Below are positions 13,079-63,106 of a DNA stretch of 64,000 nucleotides, piece by piece. Position 1 is the first letter of the stretch. The number at the start of each line of letters is the position of its first letter. The position numbers were made by a program, and so were the translations under genes. Source of the DNA: Minisyncoccota bacterium. Its GTDB lineage: Bacteria; Patescibacteriota; Minisyncoccia; Phycocordibacterales; GWA1-40-21. The stretch covers positions 37,590 to 101,589 of the forward strand of contig JBAZYH010000001.1 of NCBI GenBank assembly GCA_041659365.1, given 5' to 3'. The notes below the pieces were generated by a model, which worked only from the letters and a program-made list of their open reading frames with translations, had not been told where the DNA came from and made no database searches.

Positions 13079-13154
13079 TGTCATTCCCGTGAAGACGGTA
13101 ATCCATGAATATTATATTTCTGTCATTGCGAGGTAGTCCGTCGCAATCCAGGTT
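13079..13154. repeat. two short palindromic repeat elements (TGTCATT-hairpin-AATCC family)
   Basis: tgtcattcccgtgaagacggtaatccatg (13079-13107) and tgtcattgcgaggtagtccgtcgcaatccaggtt (13121-13154). Confidence 0.6.
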
Positions 13155-13289
13155 ATATTAACTGATTCTATATTACCCTTGAATGAATAATAATAACATT
13201 TGACAATCAAACAATGATTATGCTACATTTTAAAAGGAAAGACAAGTGTTTTTTTTAAAAAAAAACACAAAGAAAAAGGATAGTACGTT

Positions 13290-13592
13290 ATGGAACTGTC
13301 AAAAGAAAGAATGGGTAAGATTGCAATATTAATGCTCAAGAAAATCTATGAGAGACACCAGAGTAAAATGGGTATTCTCGGCCACATCAATGCCGTGGAG
13401 TTCGTGGAAGATATTTCAGCTGATTGTGCCGACCTTCCCAAGGAAGACGACATCAAGCTCGAAGAATACTTCGCTGTAATGAGTAAGATTCTTCCGAAAG
13501 AAAGTCAGGGAACATACGATGAGGCAGTGAAAAATTTCCTGGAGAAAAAATTAGTTGCTACAAAGTCACCCGAACCCGAATCGAAAAGCTGA
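13290..13592 (+). CDS. hypothetical small acidic protein; GC-rich (about 42%) relative to genome
   Basis: RBS aaaaaggat; clear codon periodicity; followed by GC-rich terminator aaaaccgcgtgcacgacacacgcggttttctt (13655-13690). Confidence 0.5.
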   Translation: MELSKERMGKIAILMLKKIYERHQSKMGILGHINAVEFVEDISADCADLPKEDDIKLEEYFAVMSKILPKESQGTYDEAVKNFLEKKLVATKSPEPESKS

Positions 13593-13654
13593 TCTTTTTT
13601 ACAGCATTTTGACAAAGGTTTTCAAGGACGGAACAATCATCCCTACTTGAAAAT

Positions 13655-13690
13655 CAAAAACCGCGTGCACGACACACGCGGTTTTCTTAT
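13655..13690 (+). terminator. intrinsic terminator (copy 1 of an identical pair)
   Basis: ccgcgtg-cacgaca-cacgcgg stem-loop plus T-run. An identical 36-bp sequence sits at 14204-14239. Confidence 0.6.
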
Positions 13691-13795
13691 TTTTTAAAAA
13701 TTGAGTTCAAACTAAAATTGACTTAATCTGACTTATTATGTAGTCTTTTAACTAGGAAATCAAGTTCTCAAACAAAACGAGTAAAAGGAGCCAGT

Positions 13796-14182
13796 ATGAA
13801 AAGGTTTTTAGTCCGATCATCGAAAGAGAACCAGTTTTGGACTTTTTTGATCAAAAAAAGCCGTAACGGAAAAATGGGGTTATGGTTTGTGATGGTGTAT
13901 GTTAAGAGTCTCAACTTTATTACCCTTTCCCCCGTCTGGAGAAAGATTGAAAATAATGGGTTACCAAAAAATATTGGTACCCATGGCCGTTTCATTCTTG
14001 GTGGAGACATCAAGCTACTTGGTGGTGACGATGCTGGATCAAATGAAAAAGAATACATCTCACAAACAACACAAAGTGGCTCTGTTAAACACACACTTCC
14101 TTGTGACGGTTTTGGCAGAGAAAAAATATTTCGCACTCTTCTCTTACTTTCAAAAGAAAGCTCTGGAGAACAGGTTGTCTAA
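13796..14182 (+). CDS. hypothetical protein; moderately GC-rich
   Basis: Consensus RBS aaaaggagcc, 5 nt, then ATG; followed by the second copy of the identical terminator (14204-14239). Overlapping alternative-frame ORFs (13899-14462 +, 13768-14136 -) are judged spurious. Confidence 0.4.
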   Translation: MKRFLVRSSKENQFWTFLIKKSRNGKMGLWFVMVYVKSLNFITLSPVWRKIENNGLPKNIGTHGRFILGGDIKLLGGDDAGSNEKEYISQTTQSGSVKHTLPCDGFGREKIFRTLLLLSKESSGEQVV

Positions 14183-14257
14183 GGCCCAAAACCTTAGGTT
14201 AATCAAAAACCGCGTGCACGACACACGCGGTTTTCTTCTGTCACTTAAGCGACAAAA

Positions 14258-14940: not shown

Positions 14941-15066
14941 AACCTGGATTGCGACGTCAGAATACTTCCTCGCAATGACAGAAGGGGAATTTTGCGAAGC
15001 AAAATTCCCCTCTCTCCTATTTATTTTCTTTTTGTCATTGCGAGTTACTACGTCGCAATCCAGGTT
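14941..15066. repeat. two short palindromic repeat elements in opposite orientation, plus a central hairpin
   Basis: aacctggattgcgacgtcagaatacttcctcgcaatgaca (14941-14980); ggggaattttgcgaagcaaaattcccc hairpin (14984-15010); tgtcattgcgagttactacgtcgcaatccaggtt (15043-15066). Confidence 0.55.
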
Positions 15067-15076
15067 AATTTTTATT

Positions 15077-16378
15077 TTATTTAAGATATTTACTTAAAAA
15101 TTCTTTTCTAAATTTATCAAAATTATTATCTAGTATACTCTGACGGATTTTTTTAACTAGATTAACAATAAAATAGATATTATGTATTGAAGCTAGTGTT
15201 CCACCAAGCATTTCTTTACCATGGAAAAGATGACACAAATAAGCTCTAGAATAATTCTTACATGTATAACACGCGCAATCATCTTCAACGGGTTTTATAT
15301 CTATTCTAAACTCGTTATTCATTATATGAATCTTCCCTGTCTTAGTGTAAATAGTTCCGTTTCTTCCAAGCCTTGTTGGTAATACACAATCAAAAAGATC
15401 TATACCATTTTCGATTCCCATAAATAAATCTTCTGGTTCACCAATACCCAAAAGGTGTCTTGGTTTTTCTTCTGGAAGTATCTCATTTACCCATTTTACA
15501 GCAGTAGACATATCTTCTTTAGCGAAAGAACCACCTATTCCAAAACCATCAAACTTTTCTCCATCTATCTCCATTTCTGAAATTACTTTTGCAGATTTCT
15601 TTCTTAAATTTTCATCTCTACCACCTTGGATAATTCCGAATAATGCTGGGCCAAAAAAATCCTGGATTCCCGCCTCCGCGAGAATGACAGATTCGGTTTT
15701 TGTTTCTTTCAACTTTTCACTTTGAACTTTTAACTTGAGATGTTCTTCCAGACAGCGCTTTGCCCAAGAATGAGTCCTCTCAAGTGCCTCCTCTTGATAC
15801 TTCAAATCTTCGGATGGTGAAGTACACTCATCAAAAGCAAATATCATATCTGCACCTAAGTTATGTTGTATCTGTATAGATCTCTCAGGAGTAATATAGT
15901 GAACAGAACCATCTATATGAGATGTAAAAGAAACTCCATCCTGTCCTATCTTTGCCAGCCTTGGAGCATTTGAATCATCAAATCTTTCAGGAATCAAAAG
16001 AGATGGATTAGTTATTTGTATAACTTTTGATATTTCTTTTCCATAAGCAGCACCAAGAGAAAAAACTTGAAAACCACCAGAATCAGTCATACTCGGTCCG
16101 TGCCAGTTCATCATTTTATTTAAACCACCCATTTTCTTCACAGATTCATCTCCAGGCTGAAGATATAAGTGATATGTATTTGCAAGGACTACTTGAGCTC
16201 CAGTATCTCTCACCTGCTCAGGATTGACCGATTTTACTGTCCCCTTAGTCCCAACCACCACAAAAGCAGGGGTTTCTATTATCCCGTGAGCTGTTTCTAT
16301 AGTTCCTGCTCTTCCAAGCTTTCCTTCAAGCTTTTTTTCTATTTTAAAATTAATAGCTTTCACTTGGTTAATATACAT
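15077..16378 (-). CDS. tgt: queuine tRNA-ribosyltransferase
   Basis: GRAGTIETAHGIIETPAFVVVGTKG, VLANTYHLYLQPG, zinc site CACYTCKNYSRAYLCHL. The track ORF runs to 16477, but that extension overlaps a repeat element, so the Met at 16376-16378 (MYINQVKAINF) is the likely start. Confidence 0.85.
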   Translation of the reverse strand: MYINQVKAINFKIEKKLEGKLGRAGTIETAHGIIETPAFVVVGTKGTVKSVNPEQVRDTGAQVVLANTYHLYLQPGDESVKKMGGLNKMMNWHGPSMTDSGGFQVFSLGAAYGKEISKVIQITNPSLLIPERFDDSNAPRLAKIGQDGVSFTSHIDGSVHYITPERSIQIQHNLGADMIFAFDECTSPSEDLKYQEEALERTHSWAKRCLEEHLKLKVQSEKLKETKTESVILAEAGIQDFFGPALFGIIQGGRDENLRKKSAKVISEMEIDGEKFDGFGIGGSFAKEDMSTAVKWVNEILPEEKPRHLLGIGEPEDLFMGIENGIDLFDCVLPTRLGRNGTIYTKTGKIHIMNNEFRIDIKPVEDDCACYTCKNYSRAYLCHLFHGKEMLGGTLASIHNIYFIVNLVKKIRQSILDNNFDKFRKEFLSKYLK

Positions 16379-17867: not shown

Positions 17868-17966
17868 TAATAAGTTAAAAGTAGAAAGTTTAAAGTTAAA
17901 AGCAATACAAATACAAAAACCACTTAAATTAAGTGGTTTTTGTATTTGTATTAAATTGTCCTTATA

Positions 17967-18461: not shown

Positions 18462-18633
18462 TGTCATTCCCGTACAGACGAGAATCTAGTATTAATCAAT
18501 ACAACCTGGATTCCCTTTTTCAAGAGAATGACAATACAAAAAACTAATTAACCTGGATTGCTTCGTTCCTCGCAAAGACAATACTCATACAAATACTAAT
18601 ACTGGATTCCCGCCTACGCGGGAACGACAATAC
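18462..18633. repeat. cluster of four short palindromic repeat elements (TGTCATT...AATCC family), 9-16 bp apart
   Basis: tgtcattcccgtacagacgagaatctagtatt; aacctggattccctttttcaagagaatgacaatac; aacctggattgcttcgttcctcgcaaagacaatac; actggattcccgcctacgcgggaacgacaatac. Confidence 0.6.
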
Positions 18634-18640: not shown

Positions 18641-18677
18641 GAGGAGACACCTTTTTGAGGATTTAAGGTCTCACCTC
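18641..18677. repeat. conserved imperfect hairpin element GAGGAGACACC-loop-GGTCTCACCTC (copy a), flanked by A- and T-runs
   Basis: caaaaaacGAGGAGACACCtttttgaggatttaaGGTCTCACCTCgtttttt. Other copies at 25861-25897, 30035-30071 and 30629-30665; partial copy at 46805-46828. Confidence 0.6.
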
Positions 18678-24441: not shown

Positions 24442-24615
24442 CTAGATTGCTTCGCTTTGCTCGCAAAGACACACAAAAAAAATAACACAAAGAGGTTTTT
24501 GCAAAGCAAAAACCTCTTTGTGTCTTTGCGAGCAAAGCGAAGCAATCCAGGTTTGTATTTATTTTTTTGTTGTCATTCCCATGCAGACAGCCTGCCCGCC
24601 TTAGGAGGGGGAATC
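24442..24615. repeat. composite palindromic element (inverted 30-bp arms around a 37-bp hairpin) plus one more short palindromic element
   Basis: ctagattgcttcgctttgctcgcaaagaca / cacaaagaggtttttgcaaagcaaaaacctctttgtg / tgtctttgcgagcaaagcgaagcaatccaggtt; then tgtcattcccatgcagacagcctgcccgccttaggagggggaatc (24571-24615). Sits between convergent genes. Confidence 0.6.
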
Positions 24616-24705
24616 TATAATTCTAATATAAAAAATAGCCTCATAAAATTTAAAATAAATTTTATGAGGCTATTTTTCGTAATCGTCTGTGTTCATTTTA
24701 TTAAA

Positions 24706-25860: not shown

Positions 25861-25897
25861 GAGGAGACGCCTTTTTTAATTCTCAAGGCCTCACCTC
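25861..25897. repeat. conserved imperfect hairpin element (copy b) with compensatory change
   Basis: GAGGAGACGCCttttttaattctcaaGGCCTCACCTC; A>G on the left arm is matched by T>C on the right arm, compared with the other copies. Confidence 0.6.
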
Positions 25898-47590: not shown

Positions 47591-48012
47591 AATATTATTA
47601 TTAAATTAACTTATAATACATTGATTATATCATATGGGATTTCATTACAAATTTAAATTAAGTCTATTTACATAATCATCATTAAACGGCTTAAAATATA
47701 ACTATAAAAAGTTATCCACAACATATGTTTGACGCTAATGCAAAATGTTGTCATCATATAAATATGCATATTAAAAGATATTGCGAATTAAATAGAAATT
47801 ACATGCCGATCTCTCACGTCGGTCTCTTTAGTATTTATACCTCAGATAAAATGTTCAATATTTCGTTTAGCCGCGATATTTTTAAAAGGTCACGCAGATC
47901 TTAAAAAATAAATCTCTTTCTTAATTAGAAAAATCTCGGCTGAGCAAAAGTCGAGATTTTTGTTTGGCATTGTTCTTTAAACTGTTCCTTAACAACTCAA
48001 AAAAGGTGGTAA

Positions 48013-49203: not shown

Positions 49204-49295
49204 TATATGAACTCGAATAAATATATAAACAAATCGGTCAGTTTTTTCTTTTTAGAAAAAACTGACCGATTTTTGTCTGTTTATATTTTATCCCC

Positions 49296-49649
49296 CTACT
49301 TCCCAATCTTCCCCAACAACAAACTAAACAATTCATAAAAGTTAGATTGTACCTCAGCCTGATCCGTAGCTTTAGTAAACTTCTCCCAACAAGCAAAAGC
49401 ATCTTTGTCTTTTAGAGCTCGTATAGAGTTTTCTAGTTGTAATCTATCTTCAAATGAGACTTCTTTATTACCTCGGAGTACTTTATCTACAAACAACCTA
49501 GTAAATGATAATACATCACTATTAATTCGTTGTTTTTGTTCTATTGTATCTATTTCTTTTATAACGACAAAGTACTTCACAGTGAAGAAGACGTTGCTTA
49601 TTACAAGTGATGCAAACAATATAATTATCAAAACTTTTAATCTATTCAT
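49296..49649 (-). CDS. hypothetical protein with N-terminal TM helix
   Basis: 117 aa; no family recognised. Confidence 0.4.
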   Translation of the reverse strand: MNRLKVLIIILFASLVISNVFFTVKYFVVIKEIDTIEQKQRINSDVLSFTRLFVDKVLRGNKEVSFEDRLQLENSIRALKDKDAFACWEKFTKATDQAEVQSNFYELFSLLLGKIGK

Positions 49650-49663
49650 ACTAATATATCTTA

Positions 49664-52600: not shown

Positions 52601-55600
52601 AGAACCTAATAAAAATGACAAACCCGTTGTATCTACTGAAGCAGAAGATGTCAAAGGTGATGTTGCCAAAACTCCATTAATATATGTTTTCCAAGAGCTA
52701 CCATCTCTCATAAATGTTAGATGCGTCCATTCTCCACCACTTATGGGCATAGAATATTGTCCTTCTCCAGCTGGAGTATTAAACGCAATTCTACCACTAT
52801 TACTCCAATATGAATAAATAACATAATTACTGAATCCAAACAAACCAGCATGAGAAGAACTATTTGACATTCTCGCCCAGAAAGATATTGTCCAATTATT
52901 AGTTCCACTAAAAGTATCTTTAATAACAGAGGCATCTATATTATTTTCTCCTGAAAATGCCAAGGCAGTATTTATTTTTCCTGAGGTTGTTAATATACTT
53001 GTATCTTGAGAAGCCGTCACATCAAAATTATTTGAGGTATTATCATCCACTGTTGTTCCACTCGTATCATTCATCCTATAATGAGCAACAAGTCCATTTG
53101 CGACTGAAGAAAAAATTGATACATCATTCAAATTAGAAACCCCCACATCCAAAGACGTAGTCGCCCCGTTAAGAGTCAACGTTCCACCATTTGCATTAAA
53201 ATTATCAGAGTTTGTAAAATTACCAGAGACAGTAAGATTACCAGAAGTAGAGTTAAATGTTCCAGAATTGATTAATAAATCTCCAGTTAAAGTAATACTG
53301 TTCGTTCCTCCATTAAATACTCCATTGTCTTGAGTAAAATCACCTGAAATAGAAAGTGTACCAGAGGTTGAATTAAATATTCCATCTGATATAGATAAGT
53401 TACCACTTAGAGTTATGGCTCCTGTTCCTCCATTGAAAGTTCCATTGCTTTGAGTGAAACCACTCGTACTAAGTGTATTTGATATTGTAAGAGTTCCTAC
53501 ATTTAGTATTACCCCACCAGTAAAGGTATTAGCTCCTGTAAGAGATAATTCTCCTGTACCAGCTTTTGTCATAGAGTATGCACCAGAGACTATTCCTCCG
53601 ACAGTAAGTTTAGCGGTGTTGTTTGTGGTAATGATACGATTTGCTGGTAAGGTAATATTTGCAGTACCCAGATTCAAATCATTAGTTCCACCAAAAGTAA
53701 TATCACCACTCCATGTCTGCGCATTATTTCCAGACAGTGTCACAGCACTAACTGAAGTATTATCTATTGTTCCACCTACTATAATAAGTGAACCTGCACC
53801 AATAGCACCAGCACTATTTATATTTAATGTACCAGCATTTAGAGTTGTAGATGTTATTGTGTTTGAGTTTATTAAAGTCAGTATTCCATCATTTTGAGTA
53901 ATGGAAGTTGCTGTAATAGTATATGATGATGTTTGAGTTATTGTGCCTGTATAACCTGTAGCAATAGTAAGAGTACCAGTAGTAACATTTGTATCTATAT
54001 CACAATTTGTTGTGTCGGCACTATCAAAAGTTACTGGTTGTCCTGCCTCAGGAACTCCAGCTCCACCTGCACCTCCAGAAGTTAATGACCAATTGTTTGT
54101 ATCATTCCAACTAGATGTTGAACCTACCCAATATTTAGATACTGAAGGAGTTGAAGGAATAGCCACTTCTCCTGCTATCCATGTTGGTCCACTTATTAAT
54201 GTTCCATTATTTGCACTATCTGAGAAATCAGAAACTGCTGTTCCTGTACCTTCATCAAAATGATAACCAGCAACTAAACCACTATTAAACGGAGCTACTG
54301 TTTTGTCTCCATAAACTCCAGTACCACTATTATATAGACCGAGTATTTCTGGAGCTGATAAAGTACGGTTCCAGATATTTATTTCGTCCAAACCACCATT
54401 CAAAAACCAAGATGAATCAGCACCCATGCCGAAATATTTAATATTGACGATATTTGTGATTGGTTTAGAGTCTTGGTATTGCGCACCGTCAATATAAAGT
54501 GTTGCGGTTCGTCCAACTCCTTCTGTATATGACTCTGTTAGAGTGACTAAATGCCAACCAGTCCAAGTAAGACCATCCATACCCATCCAATTAATTTGGA
54601 CGCCATCAGTATTTGAGCCAAAATAAAGATTATTATCAGAATACCAAAGACCAAAGTATGCCACATTTACACCTGTACCTCCAATCAAAGCATTGGATGC
54701 TGTAAAATCCTTTACCCATAGTGAATATGTCATATCAACACCACTGTCTGCTATTGGAGTTGTCAAATCGACATAACTACTTCCACCAAAACTCAAAGCA
54801 TAACTACCTTCAGTTGGATCAACTACGTAATCCACCTCCACCTCTCCGATAATCTTTAGATCAAAAACATCTGTCGGACTACCAAGCTCAGGTATAAGCT
54901 TTTTATAAAGTCCTTCATGATCAATATTAAATGTAGCGACAAGTTGATTAGTATCTGTAGTATAAGCTTCTATAGTTACAGGAGTAGAACTTGCAGGTTT
55001 GGCATAGATAGTAATATCATTTGCATTAGTAAGTATTTTTTCAAAGGTAACTCTGACATATTGTCCATCTGATAAAGGAGCGTAGTTACCATCTTGTGTT
55101 TTTACAGTGTCATAAATATCAGCAAGTATTTCTTTGTTTGCATCAAGTTGAAAAGCTTTTGAAATAAATATGATTTCAAAAGTCTGGACTGATAAGTGAG
55201 GTACTGTCCATTCTACATAGTCTAGCTTTCCATTGTTGTCGAGGTCATATGCTTTGAAGGTGACATTCTGATCTCCGTTGTTTGACCACTTTATTTTTAT
55301 TTTATCTTCTTGTCCTACTTTATATATTTCAGGAATGTTTGTAAAAGCCAGAACGTTTGTTATTGGTATTTCTCCTTCTACAGAAGAAACAGTAACTACC
55401 TTACCTGTGTCTGTTGTAGCTTCGGCTATTGTAGGGGCTGGAGTTTCATATTCAACAGTAACCAAGTCGGTTGATGTTGCAGTTGTAGAAGTAGAAGTTG
55501 TACTTGTTATAAATGTTGGAATTGATGTAGATGCTAATTCATCTAAAACTTTTATATCTTCATTTGACGAACCTCCACCACCTCCACCTGTTGTGATTTC

Positions 55601-56443
55601 TTCTTCTGCTTGTCCATTTTCTAGAGTGGATGTAGCTATATCTTCTGCTTGCCCGTTTTCTAGGGTTGTTGTAGAAACATCTGTCTCATCGGTAGTAGTT
55701 GCTACTTCGTCTGTGGTAGTACCTACGTCTGTAATTATTATCTCTTCTGTGGTAGTTGATACCAATTCTGTTGATGTGGAAACTTCTTCAATAGTAGATA
55801 CTACTTCGTCTGTTGTACTTGCTAATTCATCTACAACATCTTCAATAACTACATCATTTACAACATTTGTACTTTCTTCATTTATAACTTCTTCAATTAC
55901 AACAGGTGTTTCTTCTTCTGGTATGTCAACTACAGCAGAAACATCTACAGTAACCATTTCTGGTTCTGTAGAAGCTTCATCTACAGTAGCAAAAGAAGAA
56001 CCTACTTTTGAGAAGGCTCGACTTATTGAAGCAAAGAAACCTTTTGTATTTTGTTTCTTTACTAATTCAGCTAGAGCAAGTGATGCTTCTGATTTACTTC
56101 TTTCGTTTGATAATTTAGATAGTTTAATTCTGTCTTCGTTTGTGAGTTTAGAAGATGTTTGTATTTTGTTATTACTTACTGTAGATGTAGATATTTTTAT
56201 ATCATTAGCAATACTAGGAATCTCTACTAGATGTTGTAACCTATTTATATCGGAAACACTTACTGTTTTTATCCATCTAATTGGCTCACCTCCAAGTGAT
56301 GGGAGTTGCTTTATACTAAAGTTACTTACAATGGATTTGTTGCCTGTACTTGGAGCAAAGTAAAACAAAGCAAAAGCTATAATGAATGATCCGAGAATAG
56401 GAGAGATTGTTTTTATGCTTTTAAAAATGTTTTGTTTGTTCAT
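49664..56443 (-). CDS. giant cell-surface protein (2259 aa): N-terminal signal-anchor, Thr/Ser-rich low-complexity, two LamG/concanavalin-like lectin domains, beta-helix-like repeats, carboxypeptidase-regulatory-like beta-sandwich, C-terminal TM helix plus RRGRK tail
   Basis: LamG-like motifs LDEINIWNRTLSAPEI and SLDDIRIYNVALTQSEIDDIYN; repetitive TLT/GN segments (NTAKLTVGGIVSG...GTGELSLTGANTFTGGVILNVGTLTISN); CarbopepD_reg-like TGRYSFLVPPGDYYLTVTALGYSDYQSESFKV; C-terminus FTLIVSIALIYFVTIFIIRRGRKINY. Confidence 0.8.
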   Translation of the reverse strand: MNKQNIFKSIKTISPILGSFIIAFALFYFAPSTGNKSIVSNFSIKQLPSLGGEPIRWIKTVSVSDINRLQHLVEIPSIANDIKISTSTVSNNKIQTSSKLTNEDRIKLSKLSNERSKSEASLALAELVKKQNTKGFFASISRAFSKVGSSFATVDEASTEPEMVTVDVSAVVDIPEEETPVVIEEVINEESTNVVNDVVIEDVVDELASTTDEVVSTIEEVSTSTELVSTTTEEIIITDVGTTTDEVATTTDETDVSTTTLENGQAEDIATSTLENGQAEEEITTGGGGGGSSNEDIKVLDELASTSIPTFITSTTSTSTTATSTDLVTVEYETPAPTIAEATTDTGKVVTVSSVEGEIPITNVLAFTNIPEIYKVGQEDKIKIKWSNNGDQNVTFKAYDLDNNGKLDYVEWTVPHLSVQTFEIIFISKAFQLDANKEILADIYDTVKTQDGNYAPLSDGQYVRVTFEKILTNANDITIYAKPASSTPVTIEAYTTDTNQLVATFNIDHEGLYKKLIPELGSPTDVFDLKIIGEVEVDYVVDPTEGSYALSFGGSSYVDLTTPIADSGVDMTYSLWVKDFTASNALIGGTGVNVAYFGLWYSDNNLYFGSNTDGVQINWMGMDGLTWTGWHLVTLTESYTEGVGRTATLYIDGAQYQDSKPITNIVNIKYFGMGADSSWFLNGGLDEINIWNRTLSAPEILGLYNSGTGVYGDKTVAPFNSGLVAGYHFDEGTGTAVSDFSDSANNGTLISGPTWIAGEVAIPSTPSVSKYWVGSTSSWNDTNNWSLTSGGAGGAGVPEAGQPVTFDSADTTNCDIDTNVTTGTLTIATGYTGTITQTSSYTITATSITQNDGILTLINSNTITSTTLNAGTLNINSAGAIGAGSLIIVGGTIDNTSVSAVTLSGNNAQTWSGDITFGGTNDLNLGTANITLPANRIITTNNTAKLTVGGIVSGAYSMTKAGTGELSLTGANTFTGGVILNVGTLTISNTLSTSGFTQSNGTFNGGTGAITLSGNLSISDGIFNSTSGTLSISGDFTQDNGVFNGGTNSITLTGDLLINSGTFNSTSGNLTVSGNFTNSDNFNANGGTLTLNGATTSLDVGVSNLNDVSIFSSVANGLVAHYRMNDTSGTTVDDNTSNNFDVTASQDTSILTTSGKINTALAFSGENNIDASVIKDTFSGTNNWTISFWARMSNSSSHAGLFGFSNYVIYSYWSNSGRIAFNTPAGEGQYSMPISGGEWTHLTFMRDGSSWKTYINGVLATSPLTSSASVDTTGLSFLLGSLPSVNNQERSLDDIRIYNVALTQSEIDDIYNLGSGNEVDLSISTISLQNPVTFLGDFTISANSIFTTNNHNINLSGNLTNSGTFNTGSSTITFNGENQSITGSNTFYNFVKSVTSSSTLTFAANSTTNISNSLTLSGIANNLLSLISSISGTKWNINVSNPATVIANYLNIKDSTASGKAIAPMNSVDSGNNTNWTFNSAPNIPTLVSPSNASYTNDNTPTLSAYYSDPNTGDTGTTNYRISSTTANDCLNNLNIVNSGTSTETVSDSATTTYTPSSTIGLDGTYYWCAQNNDGSLASSFTSMGSFILDITVPTTTVGLDQTRSSTFTQTSTSSDTTSGIASYLWSGIGITFGTTTASSTTISATTDGTYTIRLTVTDNAGNSTYDEYILTWDASAPTVSSVSPADDSYISRASQLVTFTISENGDCRLAITNKSYDDMSADISCTSNSLLISCTLPSFTSGTKDIYIACNDSYNNSDSTSSTTHITYRVRGSSGGTTTSEPITTTSQTTPDNLFDIRTSNRTDDRIVTLNITPNTDTKLIIISNNPDFNKAIIIPVQTTYEYNLCGADTTCPDGDYTVYARSLDASNVASSVVSTSVTLSTTPTIEKIIDIITSIIPVPEVTLPPVSVTEEDQTNLNNNIGEIVPSEMVNLINLPVAFKNIINKFPTITSLNNDLSMGGVLLPGLAEYFGLSNNISISNFTQTQSNKVPTNLIFVRTFDESIDLNVKLSVSNEGFTTQKLNTIQGQLLKFAVKPESKAKRIDGYLMFQESYVKQNASVLDAVEERELVVAKFDYKDSGNGIWTADVSSPYTLGQYELKTIISYEDKTKEQRELSMIVLVDPEGYIYEKIGGDKEIRIANAVSSIYWKNPETSTYELWPGDNFKQKNPQTTDVTGRYSFLVPPGDYYLTVTALGYSDYQSESFKVEESKGVFMNVEMKGEFGWGKVFKVQNIFTLIVSIALIYFVTIFIIRRGRKINY

Positions 56444-56531
56444 GCAAAAATAATATAAAAGAAGATCTCTTTTTATGGAGTAATTTTATCATGATAGTGA
56501 AGGTAAATAAAGGAGAAATGGGTGTGGATAA

Positions 56532-56996
56532 TTATTTGTTTAACCAAGTGATTGTAAGTTGCAAAATAGTTGCGAAAGAGACCCAAAGTAAATAAGGAAT
56601 ATTAATATAAGCAACCCAGGTAACATATGGAAAAATAATAATAATAGACCAGATAAGTGTTCCGAGAATTAATAATATATCCATCGCAGCCAATAGGTTA
56701 TTTTGTAAACTAAACTGAAAGTATGTAAAAGAAAAATTAAAAACTAAGTTTAATATAAAAGGTAATAAAACAATAAAAGGAATTTTGTTTGTAAAATATA
56801 AATAAATAACATATCCAAAAGAAATAGCAATAAGTATATAAAGAAAAGTCCAAACTGGACCAAATATCCAAGAAGGTGGAGCAAAAAATGGTCTGATTAA
56901 TGTGGAATACCAATTATATTGAGTCATAAAAAAATAAATTATTTTAATAAATATACGTAGCCCATCCTCACTTTTTATATTAATATTATATAACAA
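56532..56996 (-). CDS. TspO/MBR family tryptophan-rich sensory protein
   Basis: WYSTLIRPFFAPPSWIFGPVWTFLYILIAISFGY plus 5 TM helices. The probable start is the internal Met (MTQYNWY) near 56927. Confidence 0.7.
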   Translation of the reverse strand: MLYNINIKSEDGLRIFIKIIYFFMTQYNWYSTLIRPFFAPPSWIFGPVWTFLYILIAISFGYVIYLYFTNKIPFIVLLPFILNLVFNFSFTYFQFSLQNNLLAAMDILLILGTLIWSIIIIFPYVTWVAYINIPYLLWVSFATILQLTITWLNK

Positions 56997-57034
56997 ATAT
57001 CAAACCCCCGCACTCATAATGCAGGGGTTATCAT

Positions 57035-57298
57035 TTATCTGGTATAGTAGCTTTTTGTGGGATTAGTAATACCGATAAAAAAAAGACCGAAAATACCAAA
57101 AGAAAAACATGTAAGGATATGCGGCTTATGTAATTGGGATATCTTGAATCTGATTCCCTTTTGAGTAAAAATCGATGTAATCAAAAAAGTAAAAATACCA
57201 GATAAAAAATAAATCCATAAAAAATCAATTCCTATCACCAACCAAAGTATCATCATTAAAGTAAATAATACAAGGGCAACACTTTTTTTCATATTCAT
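57035..57298 (-). CDS. small 2-3 TM membrane protein
   Basis: 87 aa, hydrophobic. Confidence 0.35.
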   Translation of the reverse strand: MNMKKSVALVLFTLMMILWLVIGIDFLWIYFLSGIFTFLITSIFTQKGIRFKISQLHKPHILTCFSFGIFGLFFIGITNPTKSYYTR

Positions 57299-57418
57299 AC
57301 GAATCCTCCTTTTTTGTTTAAAAACAACAAGTTCATTAATAGGTATAATTTATTGTTGTTTACTTGTCAATTTAAATCCTATTTTTTCTAATTAGTTTAC
57401 TATAGGTAATTCATTAAT

Positions 57419-57452
57419 TTCACACATATACGCCATGGCGTATATGTATGTT
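57419..57452. repeat. 34-bp palindrome (copy 2, one mismatch) overlapping the stop codon of the Cas2-like ORF
   Basis: ttcacacatatacgccatggcgtatatgtatgtt. Confidence 0.6.
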
Positions 57453-57840
57453 AATTAAAAATATTATTTTTTTCTGAATATTCTTTTGCTAATCTAAAAG
57501 TTTTTAAATTATCTTTCAATCCTATAGATTTAATATAATCAACAAAACTTTTTGGTAACGGAGAAGGTCCAACCCAAACACTCCTCTGAATCATTACATA
57601 ACCAAACTTTTTTAAATGTCTACGAAGCCAATCTCGTTCAGTCTTTTGATCGTGTGAGATATCATACATAACAATTAATTTTTTAGGTGATTCTTTTTTG
57701 AAATTTGATTGAAACGAAACATTGTATGTATCTCTTACTTTATTTTTTCTATTTTCTTTTTTTCTTTTATCAAAATCAGGACTACTTGTTGGAATACCAA
57801 AAGAATTAACCCACACCCCTTTATAGTTATGTTTACTCAT
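57451..57840 (-). CDS. Cas2-like ferredoxin-fold small protein with a 50-aa basic N-terminal extension; solitary, no other cas genes or array
   Basis: Residues about 54-100 (KKLIVMYDISHDQKTERDWLRRHLKKFGYVMIQRSVWVG) match the Cas2 beta-alpha-beta core (lvvYDis..krRrkvaklLkryG.rvQySVFec). C-terminal LKDNLKTFRL resembles the Cas2 DSVRIYRL strand. Bracketed by identical palindromes. Confidence 0.4.
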   Translation of the reverse strand: MSKHNYKGVWVNSFGIPTSSPDFDKRKKENRKNKVRDTYNVSFQSNFKKESPKKLIVMYDISHDQKTERDWLRRHLKKFGYVMIQRSVWVGPSPLPKSFVDYIKSIGLKDNLKTFRLAKEYSEKNNIFN

Positions 57841-57855
57841 TTTAATATTATATAC

Positions 57856-57893
57856 TTTTTACACATATACGCCATGGCGTATATGTGTAAAAA
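57856..57893. repeat. 34-bp perfect palindrome (copy 3) immediately upstream of the Cas2-like ORF
   Basis: tttttacacatatacgccatggcgtatatgtgtaaaaa. Confidence 0.6.
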
Positions 57894-57954
57894 GTAATAA
57901 ATTATTTTTTTAAATAATACTTTTATATTATTATTGTTGTGTTAGTATAGATAT

Positions 57955-58079
57955 TGAATTTCCGATTTGGGTGTAGGTAGTCCTCTACCGAATAACGAGG
58001 CGTCGGATAAAACGCCTACAAGGGTTTTCGGGCCTAGAGACCCAACTTCTACCAGCTCTGCACATGAGAGCTGGTTTTT
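57955..58079 (+). ncRNA. candidate small structured RNA (GC-rich island ending in intrinsic terminator); family unknown
   Basis: About 115 nt at about 48% GC in a 25% GC spacer, with internal helices (aggcgtcggataaaacgcct; gggcctagagaccc). Ends with cagctctgcacatgagagctgg plus TTTTT (58053-58079). Attempts to fold it as tRNA, tmRNA or SRP RNA failed. Confidence 0.25.
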
Positions 58080-58090
58080 CATTTAGCAAA

Positions 58091-58142
58091 ATGATGTCGC
58101 GCAATTGTCCATTAAAGCGCGACACAAACTAATAGACATCTC
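58091..58142 (-). promoter_or_regulatory. second copy of the conserved leader hairpin element (see 46752-46804)
   Basis: Minus-sense: GTGGAGATGTCTATTAGTTTGTGTCGCGCTTTAATGGACAATTGCGCGAC-ATCATTTTGCTAAATG, followed by a short GC-rich Arg-rich frame without an ATG. Confidence 0.4.
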
Positions 58143-58162
58143 CACATTTTTTATTTTTGTCA

Positions 58163-58852
58163 TTATCTGAAAGATTTTTCATATTTTGAATCTAAATAAA
58201 TCCTATCAATTACTACCTTTAGAAAATTTGCAATAAATGAATTATCAATTCTATAGAAAAACTTCTTTGCACGAGATAAGAATACTGTGCTTTCTTTAAA
58301 GACTATCAAAGTACAATTTCCTGACAACGGCTCGTTTAAAAAACGAGCTGAGCCACTTCTATCCTTTATCGCATTATTCTCATTATTACTAAGTGCCAAC
58401 TTAAAATAATGTAATGCTTTTAAACTACCAATACCTTTTAAAATAATCCCCTTATTTGAAATCTTCTTCTGCCAATTTAAAAAATTAATTCGATCATTAA
58501 ATAAAGACTTTATTTCCTCATCTGTTTCTATTGAATAAATAACCTCACCTTTTTTTAGATTCAATAATTCCTCAAAAAAATTATTGATTTGTGATAAAGA
58601 ATCATTTTGCTTGAACTCACATTTTATATATTTATTATCACATAAAGAATACAAAAAACCATCTTTAATGGTTATTTTTTTTCTATTTAATGTATTCAAT
58701 GAGTTATAAATACTAGTACGAGCAATATTCAACTTTTTACTTATTTCAGATACAGAAAGAAACCTATTTTTTTGAAGTAGATTAAATATCTTTTCTTCAG
58801 TTGGTTTTAATACTAAAAAATCTCTTACTTTCATATATTGAATAGTGTACAT
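58163..58852 (-). CDS. winged-helix transcriptional regulator (TrmB/MarR-like N-terminal HTH) with C-terminal domain
   Basis: N-terminal LKPTEEKIFNLLQKNRFLSVSEISKKLNIARTSIYNSLNTL, typical of wHTH regulators; 229 aa. Confidence 0.5.
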   Translation of the reverse strand: MYTIQYMKVRDFLVLKPTEEKIFNLLQKNRFLSVSEISKKLNIARTSIYNSLNTLNRKKITIKDGFLYSLCDNKYIKCEFKQNDSLSQINNFFEELLNLKKGEVIYSIETDEEIKSLFNDRINFLNWQKKISNKGIILKGIGSLKALHYFKLALSNNENNAIKDRSGSARFLNEPLSGNCTLIVFKESTVFLSRAKKFFYRIDNSFIANFLKVVIDRIYLDSKYEKSFR

Positions 58853-58919
58853 TATATGTACAAATAATGCAAAAAAAACTTCCTTATTGTTTAATGATTA
58901 TAGAAAGGAGATTAAAAGC

Positions 58920-59090
58920 ATGAGAAGAAACAAAAATGAAGAAATTAGAAAAGCAATTGAAAAACTTCAAAAAAAGTGTGAACATGAATGGAAATATTCA
59001 CATCAGTATTGTCCGCACGGTCTAATGCGAAGTGTTCACTCCAAAGATATCTATGTATGTTCTGTATGTGGTGTAAAAGAAGAAAGGTGA
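58920..59090 (+). CDS. small zinc-ribbon protein (about 56 aa)
   Basis: RBS aaaggagattaaaagcATG; Cys/His ligands CEHEW...CPHG...CSVCG. Followed by terminator ctccaggaaagaattcctggag plus T-run (59100-59130). The track ORF start at 58845 is probably too far upstream. Confidence 0.45.
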   Translation: MRRNKNEEIRKAIEKLQKKCEHEWKYSHQYCPHGLMRSVHSKDIYVCSVCGVKEER

Positions 59091-59131
59091 CCTAAACCTG
59101 GCTCCAGGAAAGAATTCCTGGAGCTTTTTAT

Positions 59132-60274
59132 CTAAATCTTAAACTCAATCACATCTCCATCTTTAACTACATATTCCTTCCCTTCTGTTCTTACCAAACC
59201 TTTTTCTCTTGCTTGACCATAAGAACCAACTTCAAGAAGTTTATTCCATTCTATAACCTCAGCACGCACAAACTTTTCTTTAAAATCTCCATGTATAGCG
59301 GTTCCGGCTTCTGGTGCAGTCCACCCCTTTTTAATAGTCCAGGCGCGAGTTTCATCTTCTCCTGTAGTAAAATAAGTCATAAGACCAAGTAAGTCGTAGC
59401 CTGCTTTTATAAGATTATCTACTCCATCTTCCTTAGACAATTTTTCTTCTCCTGCTAAGGCACTTCTCATTTCTTCTTTTTCAGCACCCTCGAAATCTTT
59501 TAATTCTTGCTCTATACCTGCATCTACTATCACATATTTAGAGTTAGTTTCTTTTCCGCCAGAGGCGGATCCGCCTTGGGCGGAAAAGAAATCCATTAAC
59601 TTTTTCCAACGATCATCTTTTATATCATCCAAGTTTTTTCCACCAGTTTTTTTATTTAAAATATAAAGTATTGGTTTTGCAGTAAGAAGACAAAGTTTTT
59701 TCGCTTCTTCTATTTCCTTTTCATCTAAAACTGCAGTACTAGAAAGTTTTCCTACTTCAAGCACAGCGTTTAACTTTACTAATGCACTTTTCTCTATAAC
59801 AGCACTTTTACTTCCTCTTTTGATATCACTTTCTATATTACTAAGTCTTTTGGATACAGTCTGAAGATCAGCAAGAACGAGCTCAAGATTAATAGTCTCA
59901 ATATCTGAAAGTGGATTTATCACTCCATTTACATGAATAACGTTATCATCTTCAAAGATACGGACCACTTCAGCGATAGCATCTGTCTCACGAATATTTG
60001 TAAGGAATTTATTTCCCAAACCTTCACCAGCAGAAGCTCCTTTTACAAGTCCAGCAATATCCACAAATTCAACTGCAGCAGGAATAGTTTTTGCCGCTTT
60101 AGAAAATTCTGAAAGCTTCCAAAGTCTTGGGTCAGGTACAGCAACAACACCTACAGATGGATCTATAGTACAAAAAGGATAATTTTCACAAGCTACAGCC
60201 TTACGAGTAAGCGCATTAAAAAGTGTACTTTTCCCGACGTTTGGTAAACCTACAATTCCGATTGATAATGACAT
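59132..60274 (-). CDS. ychF: ribosome-binding ATPase YchF (Obg-like GTPase family)
   Basis: G1 GIVGLPNVGKSTLFNALT, G3/G4 blocks, C-terminal TGS domain (EFKI). Contains a Gly/Ser-rich insertion. Confidence 0.85.
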   Translation of the reverse strand: MSLSIGIVGLPNVGKSTLFNALTRKAVACENYPFCTIDPSVGVVAVPDPRLWKLSEFSKAAKTIPAAVEFVDIAGLVKGASAGEGLGNKFLTNIRETDAIAEVVRIFEDDNVIHVNGVINPLSDIETINLELVLADLQTVSKRLSNIESDIKRGSKSAVIEKSALVKLNAVLEVGKLSSTAVLDEKEIEEAKKLCLLTAKPILYILNKKTGGKNLDDIKDDRWKKLMDFFSAQGGSASGGKETNSKYVIVDAGIEQELKDFEGAEKEEMRSALAGEEKLSKEDGVDNLIKAGYDLLGLMTYFTTGEDETRAWTIKKGWTAPEAGTAIHGDFKEKFVRAEVIEWNKLLEVGSYGQAREKGLVRTEGKEYVVKDGDVIEFKI

Positions 60275-60381
60275 AATGTAAATACTTTAGCAGATTTTTT
60301 TATTTTAAGATAGGTTTTTTCTATAATAGACTAATCACAATAAATTAAAAAACTTCATAATATATTATGAAGTTTTTTAAT

Positions 60382-60612
60382 TTATTGCATCAGTTTTCTT
60401 AATTCATTCTGATTCTCTCTCATAACTTCCATGGATGCAGACATCTGATCCTTACCTTCCTTCATCTTTTGTTCAATCTTTTTTGCTATATCATTAAAGA
60501 ATTCTGGATTCTTTTCTATAGCTCCTATTATCTTATTTTGTTGATCTTCTGGAAGCCCCTTCATCTGCGACTTCAACATCTGCTTCATCATTATATTTTT
60601 GAAAAATCCCAT
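60382..60612 (-). CDS. hypothetical small Lys/Glu/Met-rich helical protein
   Basis: 76 aa; no RBS evident; low confidence. Confidence 0.3.
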   Translation of the reverse strand: MGFFKNIMMKQMLKSQMKGLPEDQQNKIIGAIEKNPEFFNDIAKKIEQKMKEGKDQMSASMEVMRENQNELRKLMQ

Positions 60613-60786
60613 ATGTTTATTTATCCGACCAAAATTATTTTTGGTTTAGGATTATTATTTAATTTAATAATTATTACTAGATATTTATATCATATTTTTA
60701 ATATTTTTAAAACATATAAAAAATGAAATTTTGCTTCACAAAATTCCCTTTTTTCTTAAAAACCAAAATATCAACTTTTATTTAAA

Positions 60787-62361
60787 TTAATTCTTTCCTG
60801 AAAACAAAATTTTATCGCCTTCATCCAAACCATAGATTATTTCTGTCATTCCATTATCACCCTGAATACCAATATTTATATTTTTAGTAACTATATTATT
60901 TCCATCCATTTTTTGTACGGAATATTTATCATCATTTTCGGATATCGCATACCTTGGTATAGACAAAACATTTTCTTTTTTGTTTACCTCTATCTCTACG
61001 TCTACAGTAAGTCCACTCTTTAATCTATTGTCTATTTTATCAAAGACAATCTTTAGTTTAAAATTTGGAATATTATCTATCAAAGTCTCTGCTGGTTCTA
61101 TATAAACAAGTTTTCCAACAAAATTCTCATTAGGAAAAGCATCCATTGTCATTTTTACAACATTACCAATATTAACTTTCCCTATGTTTATTTCTGGAAC
61201 GTATGCTTCTACTTCAAAGTTCGATATCGATATTACAGAAACCATAACAGTGTTAGGAGAAACTATCTCACCAACTTTTGCTTCCTGCTTAGTAATAATT
61301 CCATCTATGGGAGAATAAATTACGTTTTTTGAAAGCTGAGCCTGAATACCTGCAACTTGAGCCTTAGCACCTTCAACCAATGATTCCTGCGTATTTGTTT
61401 GTTCTAAAGTATATCCAGATTTCTTTACCTTTAACTCGCTTTGAGAAATCTTAGAAGAATAAGATAGTGATTCATATTCATTTATACTCGCTGTTAAATT
61501 GTTTATTGCTAAATTTATATTAGTTCTTGCCGTTGAAATATTTAATTTCCATACATCTATTTCTGCTTGGGTTATATAATCATCAGCTAATATAGAGCTT
61601 AAAGCAAAAGCACTATCATCAAGAAGTTTTTTTACTGCATTTAAATTTATTTTTGAAGTATTGTAGTAAATAGCAAGGTCTGACACTTCAGTTAAACTTC
61701 TGAGAGATTTATTCCAAGAAATAAGAATATCTTCTACATCATTTTTTTCACTCCTAATATCATCCTCCAAACCAGAATCGACACTAAATTTTAAATATGA
61801 ATTATACCTAACCGGATCAACAAAAATTGGGTAAAGTTTATTTCTAACAGAGTCATCTGCTACCGTATATGTGTCTCTAATATTATTCATTAAAGAAATT
61901 TTTGACTGATTAAAATCAGAGCTAGCTTTATCTGTTTTTATATACTGTAAATCAAGCTCTTCTGACCTTGTTCCCTTTATCATTTCAGAAAGTTTTGATT
62001 GCTCCGCAGAAAGATTAGCTTCTACTTGAAGTAAATTCGCATTTAACTCACTAGAATCAAGTCTCACTAGGGACTGCCCTAATTTTACAGTATCCCCAAC
62101 AGAAGCAAAAACATAGGTGACCTTACCACTCTTTTCAAAAGACAAATCAGCAGAAGAAGCAGATTTTGTCTTACCAGAAACACTTACAGTCTGAACAATA
62201 TCACTCCTTTTTACAGTTATTATTTCCTGTGTTTTATTTTTATTATTATTTATTAATGATAAAGATATTAAAATAACAACAATTATTATTGCGGGTATAA
62301 AAAATTTTGGCTTTTTAACAAAATTTAATATTTTATCTTTTGAATTTTTTATTTTTTCCAT
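60787..62361 (-). CDS. HlyD-family membrane fusion (periplasmic adaptor) protein, long coiled-coil form
   Basis: N-terminal TM; beta-barrel/lipoyl hairpin VSGKTKSASSADLSFEKSGKVTYVFASVGDTVKLGQSLVRLD; extended coiled coil. Upstream of the ABC ATPase and permease. Confidence 0.75.
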   Translation of the reverse strand: MEKIKNSKDKILNFVKKPKFFIPAIIIVVILISLSLINNNKNKTQEIITVKRSDIVQTVSVSGKTKSASSADLSFEKSGKVTYVFASVGDTVKLGQSLVRLDSSELNANLLQVEANLSAEQSKLSEMIKGTRSEELDLQYIKTDKASSDFNQSKISLMNNIRDTYTVADDSVRNKLYPIFVDPVRYNSYLKFSVDSGLEDDIRSEKNDVEDILISWNKSLRSLTEVSDLAIYYNTSKINLNAVKKLLDDSAFALSSILADDYITQAEIDVWKLNISTARTNINLAINNLTASINEYESLSYSSKISQSELKVKKSGYTLEQTNTQESLVEGAKAQVAGIQAQLSKNVIYSPIDGIITKQEAKVGEIVSPNTVMVSVISISNFEVEAYVPEINIGKVNIGNVVKMTMDAFPNENFVGKLVYIEPAETLIDNIPNFKLKIVFDKIDNRLKSGLTVDVEIEVNKKENVLSIPRYAISENDDKYSVQKMDGNNIVTKNINIGIQGDNGMTEIIYGLDEGDKILFSGKN

Positions 62362-62372
62362 CTTTTTTGTTG

Positions 62373-63065
62373 TTAACTAATAAATTTATTTTCTCCTGTT
62401 GTATTATCTGCTATCACTCCGTCTGATAATGTTATTACTCTATGAGCTACCATCGCATAATCTTTCTCATGAGTAACCATAACTATTGTCTGTCCCTCTC
62501 TACTAAGCTCCAAAAAAACTTTTAATACTGTCTCTGCCGTCTCACTATCTAAATTTGCCGTTGGTTCATCCGCAAAGATTATTTTTGGACTATGACCTAT
62601 TGCTCTCGCTATACTTACTCTCTGCTGTTGTCCACCAGATAATTGACTGGGAAGATTTTCTAACTTATCCAATAAACCAACTTTCTCGAGAGCAATCCTT
62701 GAAATACGTTCAGCAGTCTTTTTATCTGTACCTTGCATAAGAAGTGGTAACATAACATTTTCAAGAGAATTAAGTTCTGGTATAAGAGCATAATCTTGAA
62801 AAACAAAACCAAGTTCTCTTAATCTAAACTGTGTTTTCTCTTGTGGGTTAAGTTTAGAAATATTTACATTATCAACTATTATATCACCACTATTGGGTTC
62901 ATCTAAAAGACTGAGTTGATACATCAAAGTACTTTTTCCAGAACCAGATCTTCCAGTAATAGCGACAAATTCTCCTTTTTTTACATGTATATCAAGCCCT
63001 TTCAAAACAACAAGTTCAGAATCTCCTACTTTAAATTTTTTTATTATACCTTTTGCTTTTATCAT
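62373..63065 (-). CDS. ABC transporter ATP-binding protein (MacB/LolD-like)
   Basis: Walker A GRSGSGKST, signature LSGGQQQRVSIARA, Walker B IIFADEPT. The start is set at ATG 63063-63065 (MIKAKGIIKKF), because the track's upstream extension (TTG at 63098) runs into a repeat element. Confidence 0.85.
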   Translation of the reverse strand: MIKAKGIIKKFKVGDSELVVLKGLDIHVKKGEFVAITGRSGSGKSTLMYQLSLLDEPNSGDIIVDNVNISKLNPQEKTQFRLRELGFVFQDYALIPELNSLENVMLPLLMQGTDKKTAERISRIALEKVGLLDKLENLPSQLSGGQQQRVSIARAIGHSPKIIFADEPTANLDSETAETVLKVFLELSREGQTIVMVTHEKDYAMVAHRVITLSDGVIADNTTGENKFIS

Positions 63066-63073
63066 TTTTGTAT

Positions 63074-63106
63074 TGTCATTGCGAGCATAGCGTCGCAATC
63101 CAGGTT
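63074..63106. repeat. short palindromic repeat element 9 nt upstream of the ABC ATPase start codon
   Basis: tgtcattgcgagcatagcgtcgcaatccaggtt. Confidence 0.6.

Follow-up and report, generated by a model that had tools for sequence, protein, structure and literature searches.

GTC-tagged palindromic repeats with three stem classes in a 64-kb chromosomal segment from the candidate phyla radiation: probable relatives of the NTS/SRM repeats

What are the short palindromes that recur between the genes of contig JBAZYH010000001.1 of a Minisyncoccota bacterium, and what might read them? The stretch analyzed, referred to throughout as the window, is 64 kb of ordinary bacterial chromosome at 32% GC with a single GC-skew trend, and its genes include uvrA (split), uvrB, uvrC, tgt, dnaG, rpoD, rpoB, and rpoC. 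Read site by site, it holds 24 clear copies and three remnants of one repeat family between positions 10864 and 63103. We consider it likely that these are GTC-tagged repetitive extragenic palindromes (REPs), of the kind described as CGTC/TGTC-tagged REPs and redefined in 2025 as NTS/SRM. The repeat class has been known since 2013, and the year 2025 brought publication of its protein partner and of the biochemistry. What is added here is modest: an example from the candidate phyla radiation (CPR; Paceibacterota-like) and the co-residence of three stem classes under one tag and tail, together with siting on terminator tails, mixed direct pairs, a copy in frame within tgt, and differences in presence and absence relative to a close relative.

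The strict pattern TGTCATT-N15-35-AATCCAG is matched exactly six times against an expectation of 0.00 (100 dinucleotide shuffles), and the looser pattern GTC[ATG]T[TC]-N14-41-[AG]ATC[CT]A[GT] is matched 27 times against a mean of 3.4 and a maximum of 11 in 300 Markov-1 simulations. The copies have a GC content of ~50-65%, compared with 32% for the genome, and 13 of the 24 clear ones lie on the plus strand and 11 on the minus. Their density is ~0.4 copies per kb, and they account for ~7% of the non-coding DNA, which amounts to ~10.5 kb in the window and houses every clear copy except one inside tgt. In a simple gene model, 13 of the 45 intergenic spacers are occupied, and a covariance-model scan of the window returned zero copies at 1-10800 and 45000-63000. 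An earlier reading of the same DNA from its letters alone (the sequence-only reading) had described at least 25 copies in nearly every intergenic spacer, with fixed ends, in both orientations, GC-richer than the genome, and distinct from a CRISPR array. The family is real, and its ends, orientations, and composition are as described; a CRISPR array is excluded by the dispersal, mixed orientation, and irregular spacing of the copies. The near ubiquity was overstated. Each site it listed holds a copy, with the corrections that "15043" is really 15034-15063 and that 29149 is only a degenerate 3' remnant. The site at 10861-10982, which it had treated as a separate element, joins two members of this very family head to head, whereas the copy in tgt (15662-15688) and the remnants at 29987 and 34731 had escaped it.

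All copies share a 5' tag, (T)GTC(A/T)TT, and finish at the 3' side with AATCCAG, to which GTT is usually appended; between these ends three classes of stem are found. The unit consists of the unpaired tag (T)GTC, a stem beginning with A-T and T-A pairs, a small loop that is often of the GNRA or GAA type, and an unpaired tail, C-CAG, that gives the unit its polarity. The GTC is present in all clear copies, and among 44 copies taken from the window and low-GC loci, 38 have a T just ahead of it. Class B comprises 11 copies, ten of which are exactly 27 nt long with an 8-bp stem and a 4-nt loop (for example, GTCATTCCCGTGAAGACGGGAATCCAG); the 11th, at 24572-24618, carries a 20-nt loop insertion. 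The seven class A copies have the form GTCATTGCGAG-N6-13-GTCGCAATCCAG, with a 7-bp ATTGCGA/TCGCAAT stem and a loop that is longer than that of class B and partly structured. Class C, with six copies (for example, GTCTTTGCGAGCGAAGCGAAGCAATCCAG), has the form GTCTTTGCGAGC(G/A)AAGCGAAGCAATCCAG and a stem of only ~4 bp.

When folded as single-stranded DNA (ssDNA), classes A and B form significant hairpins (-7.0 to -7.6 kcal/mol, z -3.2 to -6.2). An alignment of 21 distinct class-B-type sequences, drawn from the window and related loci, shows changes on both sides in six of the eight stem pairs, with G1, T2, C3, and C24 invariant. Selection on structure, as had been proposed from the sequence alone, was right in kind. 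The register of the stem is sharp, with 98.8% of cells paired against 20-54% in slid controls, the former figure being inflated because the sequences were chosen for at least six of eight pairs. A covariance model built from class B only recovers all seven class A copies at full length, with E values, to be taken as rough, of 0.008-0.035; over the window it does not recover class C, and nothing else reaches E < 0.3.

This anatomy has been described before. In a 2013 survey by Di Nocera, De Gregorio and Rocco (PMC3733652), repeats of this sort were grouped as CGTC-tagged REPs, in which CGTC-1 corresponds to dRS3 and the Rickettsia elements RPE-4 and RPE-6 are included. In CGTC-1, the tag is often TGTC (with a CCTC variant as well), the 8-bp stem starts with AT, the loop has 4 nt, and the tail is CCA. 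The same survey reported dimers, siting between unidirectional and convergent genes, in-frame copies in genes of DNA and RNA transactions, and no association with a transposase in any species. In the window, all clear copies begin with GTC, and the ten class B copies of 27 nt reproduce the TGTC tag, stem, loop, and tail of CGTC-1, from which classes A and C deviate. The copies are likewise multiple, intergenic, and free of any nearby transposase, they form dimers, they lie mostly between unidirectional or convergent genes, and one is in frame within tgt. The differences are that the host belongs to the CPR, Patescibacteria/CPR not being among the five phyla listed in the survey; that the loops of class A measure 6-13 nt (from GCGAG to GTCGC), as opposed to 4-5 nt in the four described families; and that direct pairs are about as common as the other types (five head-to-tail, three head-to-head, and three tail-to-tail), whereas head-to-head dimers predominate and head-to-tail pairs are negligible in the survey (PMC3733652).

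The correspondence is also close with the Neisseria NTS, given by Chenal et al. (2025; PMC11893778) as CGTCATTCCCGCGMAVGCGGGAATCYRG and encompassing dRS3 (ATTCCC-N8-GGGAAT). Class B departs from this consensus at 3-4 of 28 positions (24-25 of 28 identical; six copies lie within 3-4 mismatches) and shares with it the 20-nt ATTCCC-N8-GGGAAT core. It also has the hallmark of an ssDNA hairpin with a conserved GTC upstream and a C right after the palindrome, which together confer orientation. The degenerate pattern of the Ssn-related motif (SRM) from the same work, HGTCWYN(0-2)YYVSBRHN(0-5)WNVSBRGN(0-2)RNCYNB, is matched exactly by five copies against 0.08 expected, and the combination of constant ends with variable but compensated stems is that seen around Ssn-type genes. 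The window differs in having no ssnA, a CPR host at 32% GC, and two extra stem classes (A and C), and its copies are dispersed over many spacers, many of them on terminator tails, rather than gathered into large mosaics. The sequence-only reading, in calling the elements REP-like, was right in kind: they have the anatomy of the CGTC/TGTC-tagged superfamily, and class B is nearly the Neisseria NTS/dRS3.

The protein that recognizes NTS is SsnA, a 94-amino acid, single-domain GIY-YIG protein of the cd10448 type. It binds the hairpin in ssDNA form only and makes its cut a few nucleotides upstream; binding depends critically on the C that follows the palindrome and cutting on the three bases that precede it, and the Nm SsnA does not bind the RNA form (PMC11893778). 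The earlier suggestion of recognition sites for an unknown binding protein was right as to recognition by a protein, although such a protein is already known elsewhere. A seed search brought up GIY-YIG proteins of 94-96 residues that make up a very large family. Several members carry annotated N-terminal extensions, VIPAKAGIQ, VIPVKTGIQ, or FRRTPES, that are in fact sense class-B-type copies lying just upstream of the gene, and at three fetched loci the gene is flanked within 150 bp by 27-nt copies of the GTCATTCCGG..CCGGAATCCAG type in both orientations. Among 33 IMG/VR loci with an Ssn-type gene, GTC-tagged hairpins lie no more than 300 bp away in 29; these hairpins keep their GTCAT... and ...CCA ends constant while the stems differ widely, and some have long structured loops like those of class A. 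Ssn-type proteins are encoded in CPR genomes too (P0271 of Patescibacteria and P0321 of Moranbacteria, 46-53% identical to the proteobacterial type). In the CPR locus L037, 6 nt separate the end of a tagged hairpin from the ATG of the Ssn-type gene. In L042, a class A/C-like element on the sense strand, GTCATTGCGAGCG...GAGCGAAGCAATC, stands directly before the gene, which is followed by three other tagged hairpins. By analogy with these loci, we infer an Ssn partner for the organism of the window. Classes A and C would also be Ssn substrates, to judge from their shared ends, the covariance-model matches, and one CPR locus.

The scheme that we favor would run as follows. When the DNA becomes single-stranded, during replication or repair or as incoming transforming DNA, the unit would fold into its hairpin; an Ssn-family protein of ~95 residues with a single GIY-YIG domain would bind the hairpin together with the C after the stem and cut the single strand a few bases 5' of the GTC tag. 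Such cutting may trim motif-bearing ssDNA or limit its recombination, and the repeats probably owe their spread to it as well.

Several observations weigh against this interpretation. No Ssn-type gene was found in the 64-kb window, which was searched with a GIY/YIG regular expression, with phmmer and three seed sequences, and with a hidden Markov model of 209 retrieved Ssn-type proteins run against all six-frame open reading frames (ORFs) of at least 20 residues (best E value 8.9). Pfam and NCBIfam scans of 50 window ORFs, among them every gene of the gene model, detected no transposase, RAYT, Y1 domain, or stand-alone small nuclease, and the only GIY-YIG domain in the window is that of UvrC. 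An Ssn-type gene is likewise missing from the 28 loci (L002-L029) collected around class A/C patterns; a class A scan of a genome collection (12 loci) and a metagenome scan with class A/C and a low-GC 3' flank (13 loci) yielded none either. The SRM pattern as published covers neither class A nor class C, and what ties them to Ssn is their shared flanks and the one CPR locus. The strands show no bias with respect to replication, with 13 copies on one and 11 on the other in a window that lies on a single replichore, so that a role tied to one replication strand is not indicated. Class C, moreover, folds on its own no better than shuffled sequence (z +0.38) and is unstable under nearest-neighbor rules, so that the earlier claim of invariably self-complementary stems does not hold. 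Class C does contain GCGAAGC, a notably stable DNA mini-hairpin that nearest-neighbor rules under-rate. Lastly, 19% of SRM-rich genomes have no detectable Ssn (PMC11893778).

Many of the copies are paired. The three head-to-head pairs have spacers of 51-58 nt, and each surrounds an A-run, hairpin, and T-run that scores as a bidirectional terminator. In the first, class C copies at 10864-10892 (minus strand, GTCTTTGCGAGCGAAGCGAAGCAATCCAG) and 10951-10979 (plus) enclose such an element at 10911-10943, terminator-like on both strands, and the whole unit, 10864-10979, is a 116-nt palindrome of -52.5 kcal/mol (z -16). The second is formed by class A copies at 14944-14979 (minus; a 13-nt structured loop, z -3.2) and 15034-15063 (plus), with a spacer hairpin GGGGAATTTTGC-GAA-GCAAAATTCCCC, and the third by class C copies at 24442-24470 (minus) and 24522-24550 (plus) around a terminator-like hairpin at 24484-24524. 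The three tail-to-tail pairs are 12-22 nt apart; among them are a class A copy at 43648-43677 (plus) facing a class B copy at 43690-43716 (minus), and class B copies at 44880-44906 (plus, with an ATCC../..GGAT stem) and 44929-44955 (minus). The five direct (head-to-tail) pairs, with intervals of 15-24 nt, are mostly of mixed class (A+B or C+B). Single copies often begin right after the T-tail of a terminator, as at 43690 (...AAGGTTTAACCTTGATTTTTGTATT|GTCATTCCCG, in which the GTC follows the T-tail directly) and at 18602, and the T-rich 5' flank is for this reason largely a terminator-tail feature. The word TTGTATT was rejected as a specific target: it is common (52 occurrences in the window) and also trails element-free terminators, so that it belongs to terminator tails as such, and a preference for it as a target is no more than possible. 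Those terminators, at 9633-9661 and 17905-17951, are bidirectional, with TTGTATT tails on both sides and no GTC-tagged element, and look like "empty" versions of the sites.

Comparison with related genomes provides a view of turnover. L011, a 3.8-kb contig of a "Candidatus Paceibacterota" metagenome-assembled genome (MAG; JBAYAG01), is syntenic with 42359-46213 at 78-86% nucleotide identity, and contigs from Saccharibacteria MAGs contain all three classes with the same flanks; together these place the source of the window among the CPR/Patescibacteria. The copy at 14944-14979 recurs identically in the Saccharibacteria MAG L010. Copy 42982 is retained in L011 at 35 of 36 bases in flanks of ~78% identity. 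Elsewhere the two differ: L011 lacks the pair 43648/43690 at the orthologous position, the entire 44831-44975 spacer and hence the pair 44880/44929, and copy 42301, and at the 42343 site it has a class-C-like copy in place of the class A variant. Where the two genomes differ, no target-site duplications can be seen, the spacers being too diverged for insertion boundaries to be placed. The class A sequence is found much further afield, in Opitutales, Rhodospirillales, Pelagibius, Saccharibacteria, and Paceibacterota, at 31-65% GC; in the form GTCATTGCGAG..GTCGCAATCCAGG it occurs in L002-L009 (Opitutales, Rhodospirillales, and Pelagibius; 60-65% GC) and in the window, L007, and L010-L013 (31-34% GC). 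In the high-GC genomes, it is often present as inverted pairs ~25 bp apart.

Could the copies act mainly at the level of RNA? On this account, which is possible but to our minds doubtful, hairpins and palindromes would stabilize transcripts, aid termination or processing, or give rise to small RNAs, and the link to a nuclease would be irrelevant. It draws on the fact that all but two of the 13 spacers with copies (11 of 13) are bounded by unidirectional or convergent genes, on the many copies that abut terminator T-tails or surround terminator-like hairpins, and on the argument that most REPs are transcribed (PMC3733652). There is also a resemblance to WsnRNA46 (Rfam RF02625), an expressed Wolbachia small RNA whose consensus, the inverted pair GuGuCauCC...GGgauCcaG / CugGauuCC...GGauGaCa, consists of tail-to-tail GTC-tagged hairpins like those at 44880/44929; this curated family appears to be a dimer of the GTC-tagged DNA repeat class. 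The pair in the window (44860-44975) reaches no more than 32.6 bits, where the gathering score is 65.3, and is not a member, and in an Rfam scan of the window only a tRNA passes the gathering thresholds, sub-threshold microRNA matches merely reflecting the long palindromes. Moreover, no T-run follows the copies, which do not score as terminators in their own right, their orientation relative to the flanking genes is mixed, and their asymmetric ends, the GTC tag and the C-CAG tail, are what Ssn reads in ssDNA, with Nm SsnA not binding RNA. An RNA-level function would also leave unexplained the occurrence of the same 30-nt sequence across phyla whose GC contents range from 31 to 65%. A role in RNA is plausible even so, and compatible with one in DNA: copies that directly follow or enclose terminator T-tails would form part of the 3' ends of mRNAs and may have a secondary function as RNA hairpins. 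A different proposal, that the copies are decaying relics, spread by an Ssn-type or other enzyme since lost from a reduced genome and now drifting without function, strikes us as unlikely. The three degenerate remnants, the copy with the 20-nt loop insertion, the non-folding class C, and the lack of a nuclease gene in the window would all suit it, and it has been proposed that CGTC repeats may be on their way to extinction (PMC3733652); yet the near-perfect retention of copy 42982 in much more diverged flanks and the compensated stems speak against it, presence/absence differences between close relatives suggest recent turnover, and in other CPR genomes Ssn-type genes are flanked by copies.

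A number of copies are found 10-50 nt upstream of start codons or in divergent promoter regions (13080/13122, 42301/42343, and 63075), as would befit operators or sites at which a transcription factor or nucleoid protein binds double-stranded DNA. Most, however, are downstream of genes, one is within a coding region, and the stems vary while pairing is preserved, which suggests that what is read is the folded single strand and not the duplex; we regard such sites as very improbable. The sequence-only reading had also thought of REP/BIME- or MITE-like elements. Scarcely credible is the idea of classical REPs or bacterial interspersed mosaic elements (BIMEs) moved by a REP-associated tyrosine transposase (RAYT) of the IS200/IS605 type, or of miniature inverted-repeat transposable elements (MITEs) mobilized by an insertion sequence (IS) for whose transposase the head-to-head pairs serve as terminal inverted repeats. 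There are genuine parallels with the GTAG REPs and BIMEs of Escherichia coli and Pseudomonas: both are small intergenic hairpins found in alternating dimers, with an unpaired tag that provides polarity, and in both a dedicated nuclease-type enzyme would recognize the ssDNA hairpin (here by way of Ssn). The head-to-head pairs also form 116-nt palindromes. The tag is nevertheless GTC[A/T]T in all copies and not the RAYT-defining GTAG, the proposed enzyme is of the GIY-YIG rather than the HUH tyrosine transposase type, and no Y1/HUH domain, RAYT, or other transposase is present in the 50 scanned ORFs; no species in the survey showed CGTC repeats associated with a transposase (PMC3733652). As to MITEs, the units measure 27-36 nt against 70-300 bp and have no terminal inverted repeats with target duplications, none being visible in comparison with L011, and no IS was found in the window.

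A further step can be contemplated, with considerable reserve and as something rather improbable. Within this ultra-small CPR genome, the repeats may have diversified into three stem classes, placed preferentially after terminator T-tails (TTTGTATT|GTC) and often as direct pairs of mixed class, either because one Ssn of relaxed specificity, or several Ssn paralogues that each favor different stems, actively copies the units to a preferred target in an IS200/IS605-like manner or because classes A and C are read by another protein. Were this so, the cross-phylum distribution of class A, from 31 to 65% GC, would represent repeated horizontal spread of a selfish module of nuclease plus hairpin, one that might gate the recombination of incoming single strands in organisms living on scavenged DNA. 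The lineage is, in any case, a convenient one in which to ask how the repeats spread and whether the specificity of Ssn follows the stem.

The remaining copies illustrate the variety within each class. Class B is represented on the plus strand at 13080-13106 (one stem mismatch and a CCAT tail; 39.4 bits), at 18463-18489 (tail CTAG; fits the SRM pattern), and at 42301-42327 (a compensated CCTG/CAGG stem). On the minus strand, it is found at 18506-18532, with an AT-richer stem, at 18602-18628 (GTCGTTCCCGCGTAGGCGGGAATCCAG), directly after the T-tail of a terminator-like hairpin, and at 34831-34857 (GTCATTCCCGTGAAGACGGGAATCCAG), the best match to the model (46.6 bits, z -3.65). The class B-like copy at 24572-24618 (plus; z -1.2) owes its length to the GC-rich 20-nt loop insertion (..CAGACAGCCTGCCCGCCTTAGGAGG..), and similar nested loop insertions (GAGCCTGTGCCCGC..) are seen in copies beside Ssn genes in L050, L056, and L057. 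Further class A copies, all on the plus strand, lie at 13122-13151 (GTCATTGCGAGGTAGTCCGTCGCAATCCAG), 42982-43017, and 63075-63103, the last being 10 nt upstream of the likely start of an ABC-ATPase gene; the variant at 42343-42371 has ATTAC/GTAAT in place of ATTGC/GCAAT, a compensated change. Class C is completed by a short copy at 18553-18579 and a variant at 34775-34806, both on the minus strand. The degenerate remnants are located at 29149-29183 (minus), where the 3' end GGCAATCCAG is retained, at 29987-30015 (plus; GTCTTTACGAG...AATAATCCAG), and, as a possible case, at 34731-34763 (plus; GTCTTTATGAAG...AACAATCTAT).

Some copies meet coding sequence. The minus-strand tgt gene (15077-16378) contains a complete 27-nt class B copy at 15662-15688 (42.4 bits) in the sense strand, read in frame as SVILAEAGIQ. 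Compared with the solved Zymomonas TGT, the protein has a 21-residue insertion (~15650-15715) that holds the whole copy and has the RWAKR helix region on one side and the ALFGI(Q)QG motif on the other. This parallels the in-frame RPE and REP copies reported in Rickettsia and other bacteria. In the longest uvrB ORF, the ATG is supplied by the GTCATT of copy 13080, and homology begins 11 residues later; the true start is likely to be the second Met, with the upstream ATG spurious. Similarly, the ABC-ATPase ORF (62373-63098) reads through copy 63075 as ..YARNDN.. ahead of the likely Met. Annotators should be aware that copies create spurious N-terminal extensions, as in uvrB and the ABC-ATPase gene, and also give rise to small ORFs that are not genuine, recognizable by peptides like VIPAKAGIQ or ARND.

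The window has two other small repeats. One is an imperfect hairpin, GAGGAGACACC-N15-GGTCTCACCTC, between an A-run and a T-run, with copies at 18641-18677, 25861-25897, 30035-30071, and 30629-30665 of the window, at ~1463-1511 of L011, and at ~4352-4420 of L013. It resembles a bidirectional terminator, yet its sequence is conserved across copies and related genomes, and GTC-tagged elements often begin directly after its T-tail. The other consists of a hairpin, GTCGCG-N-CGCGAC, followed by AAACTAATAGA, and is present at 46757-46810 and 58095-58143 as well as in L007 and L013. At 46757-46810 it stands directly 5' of the minus-strand start codon of an M29 peptidase gene, and it may be a leader or regulatory hairpin.

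A second subfamily of small GIY-YIG proteins (seed MYYVYIL..HNSGK..REKYLKSGKGR) was considered as a partner of the repeats and rejected, its members being found in CPR tRNA arrays without flanking repeats. Examples are P0096 and P0101, inside arrays at L014 (10350-10870) and L016 (270-910), where repeated tRNA-like copies have GC-rich hairpin inserts (e.g. CTGCGCCAGAGGCGCACCCGCCTCCGGCGGGG) in the T-arm region; this looks like a separate mobile or intervening-sequence system. Elsewhere in the window, a small Cas2/PaaX_M-like protein (57451-57840, minus) adjoins a helix-turn-helix protein (58163-58852, minus), and the window holds no CRISPR array or other cas genes. The split uvrA occupies 6377-8986 on the minus strand: the ORF at 7976-8986 corresponds to positions 2-294 of the UvrA profile and that at 6377-7849 to positions 463-942, with a stop codon and only 126 bp between them and ~170 central residues missing, so that it is either a pseudogene or a shortened UvrA made in two pieces.

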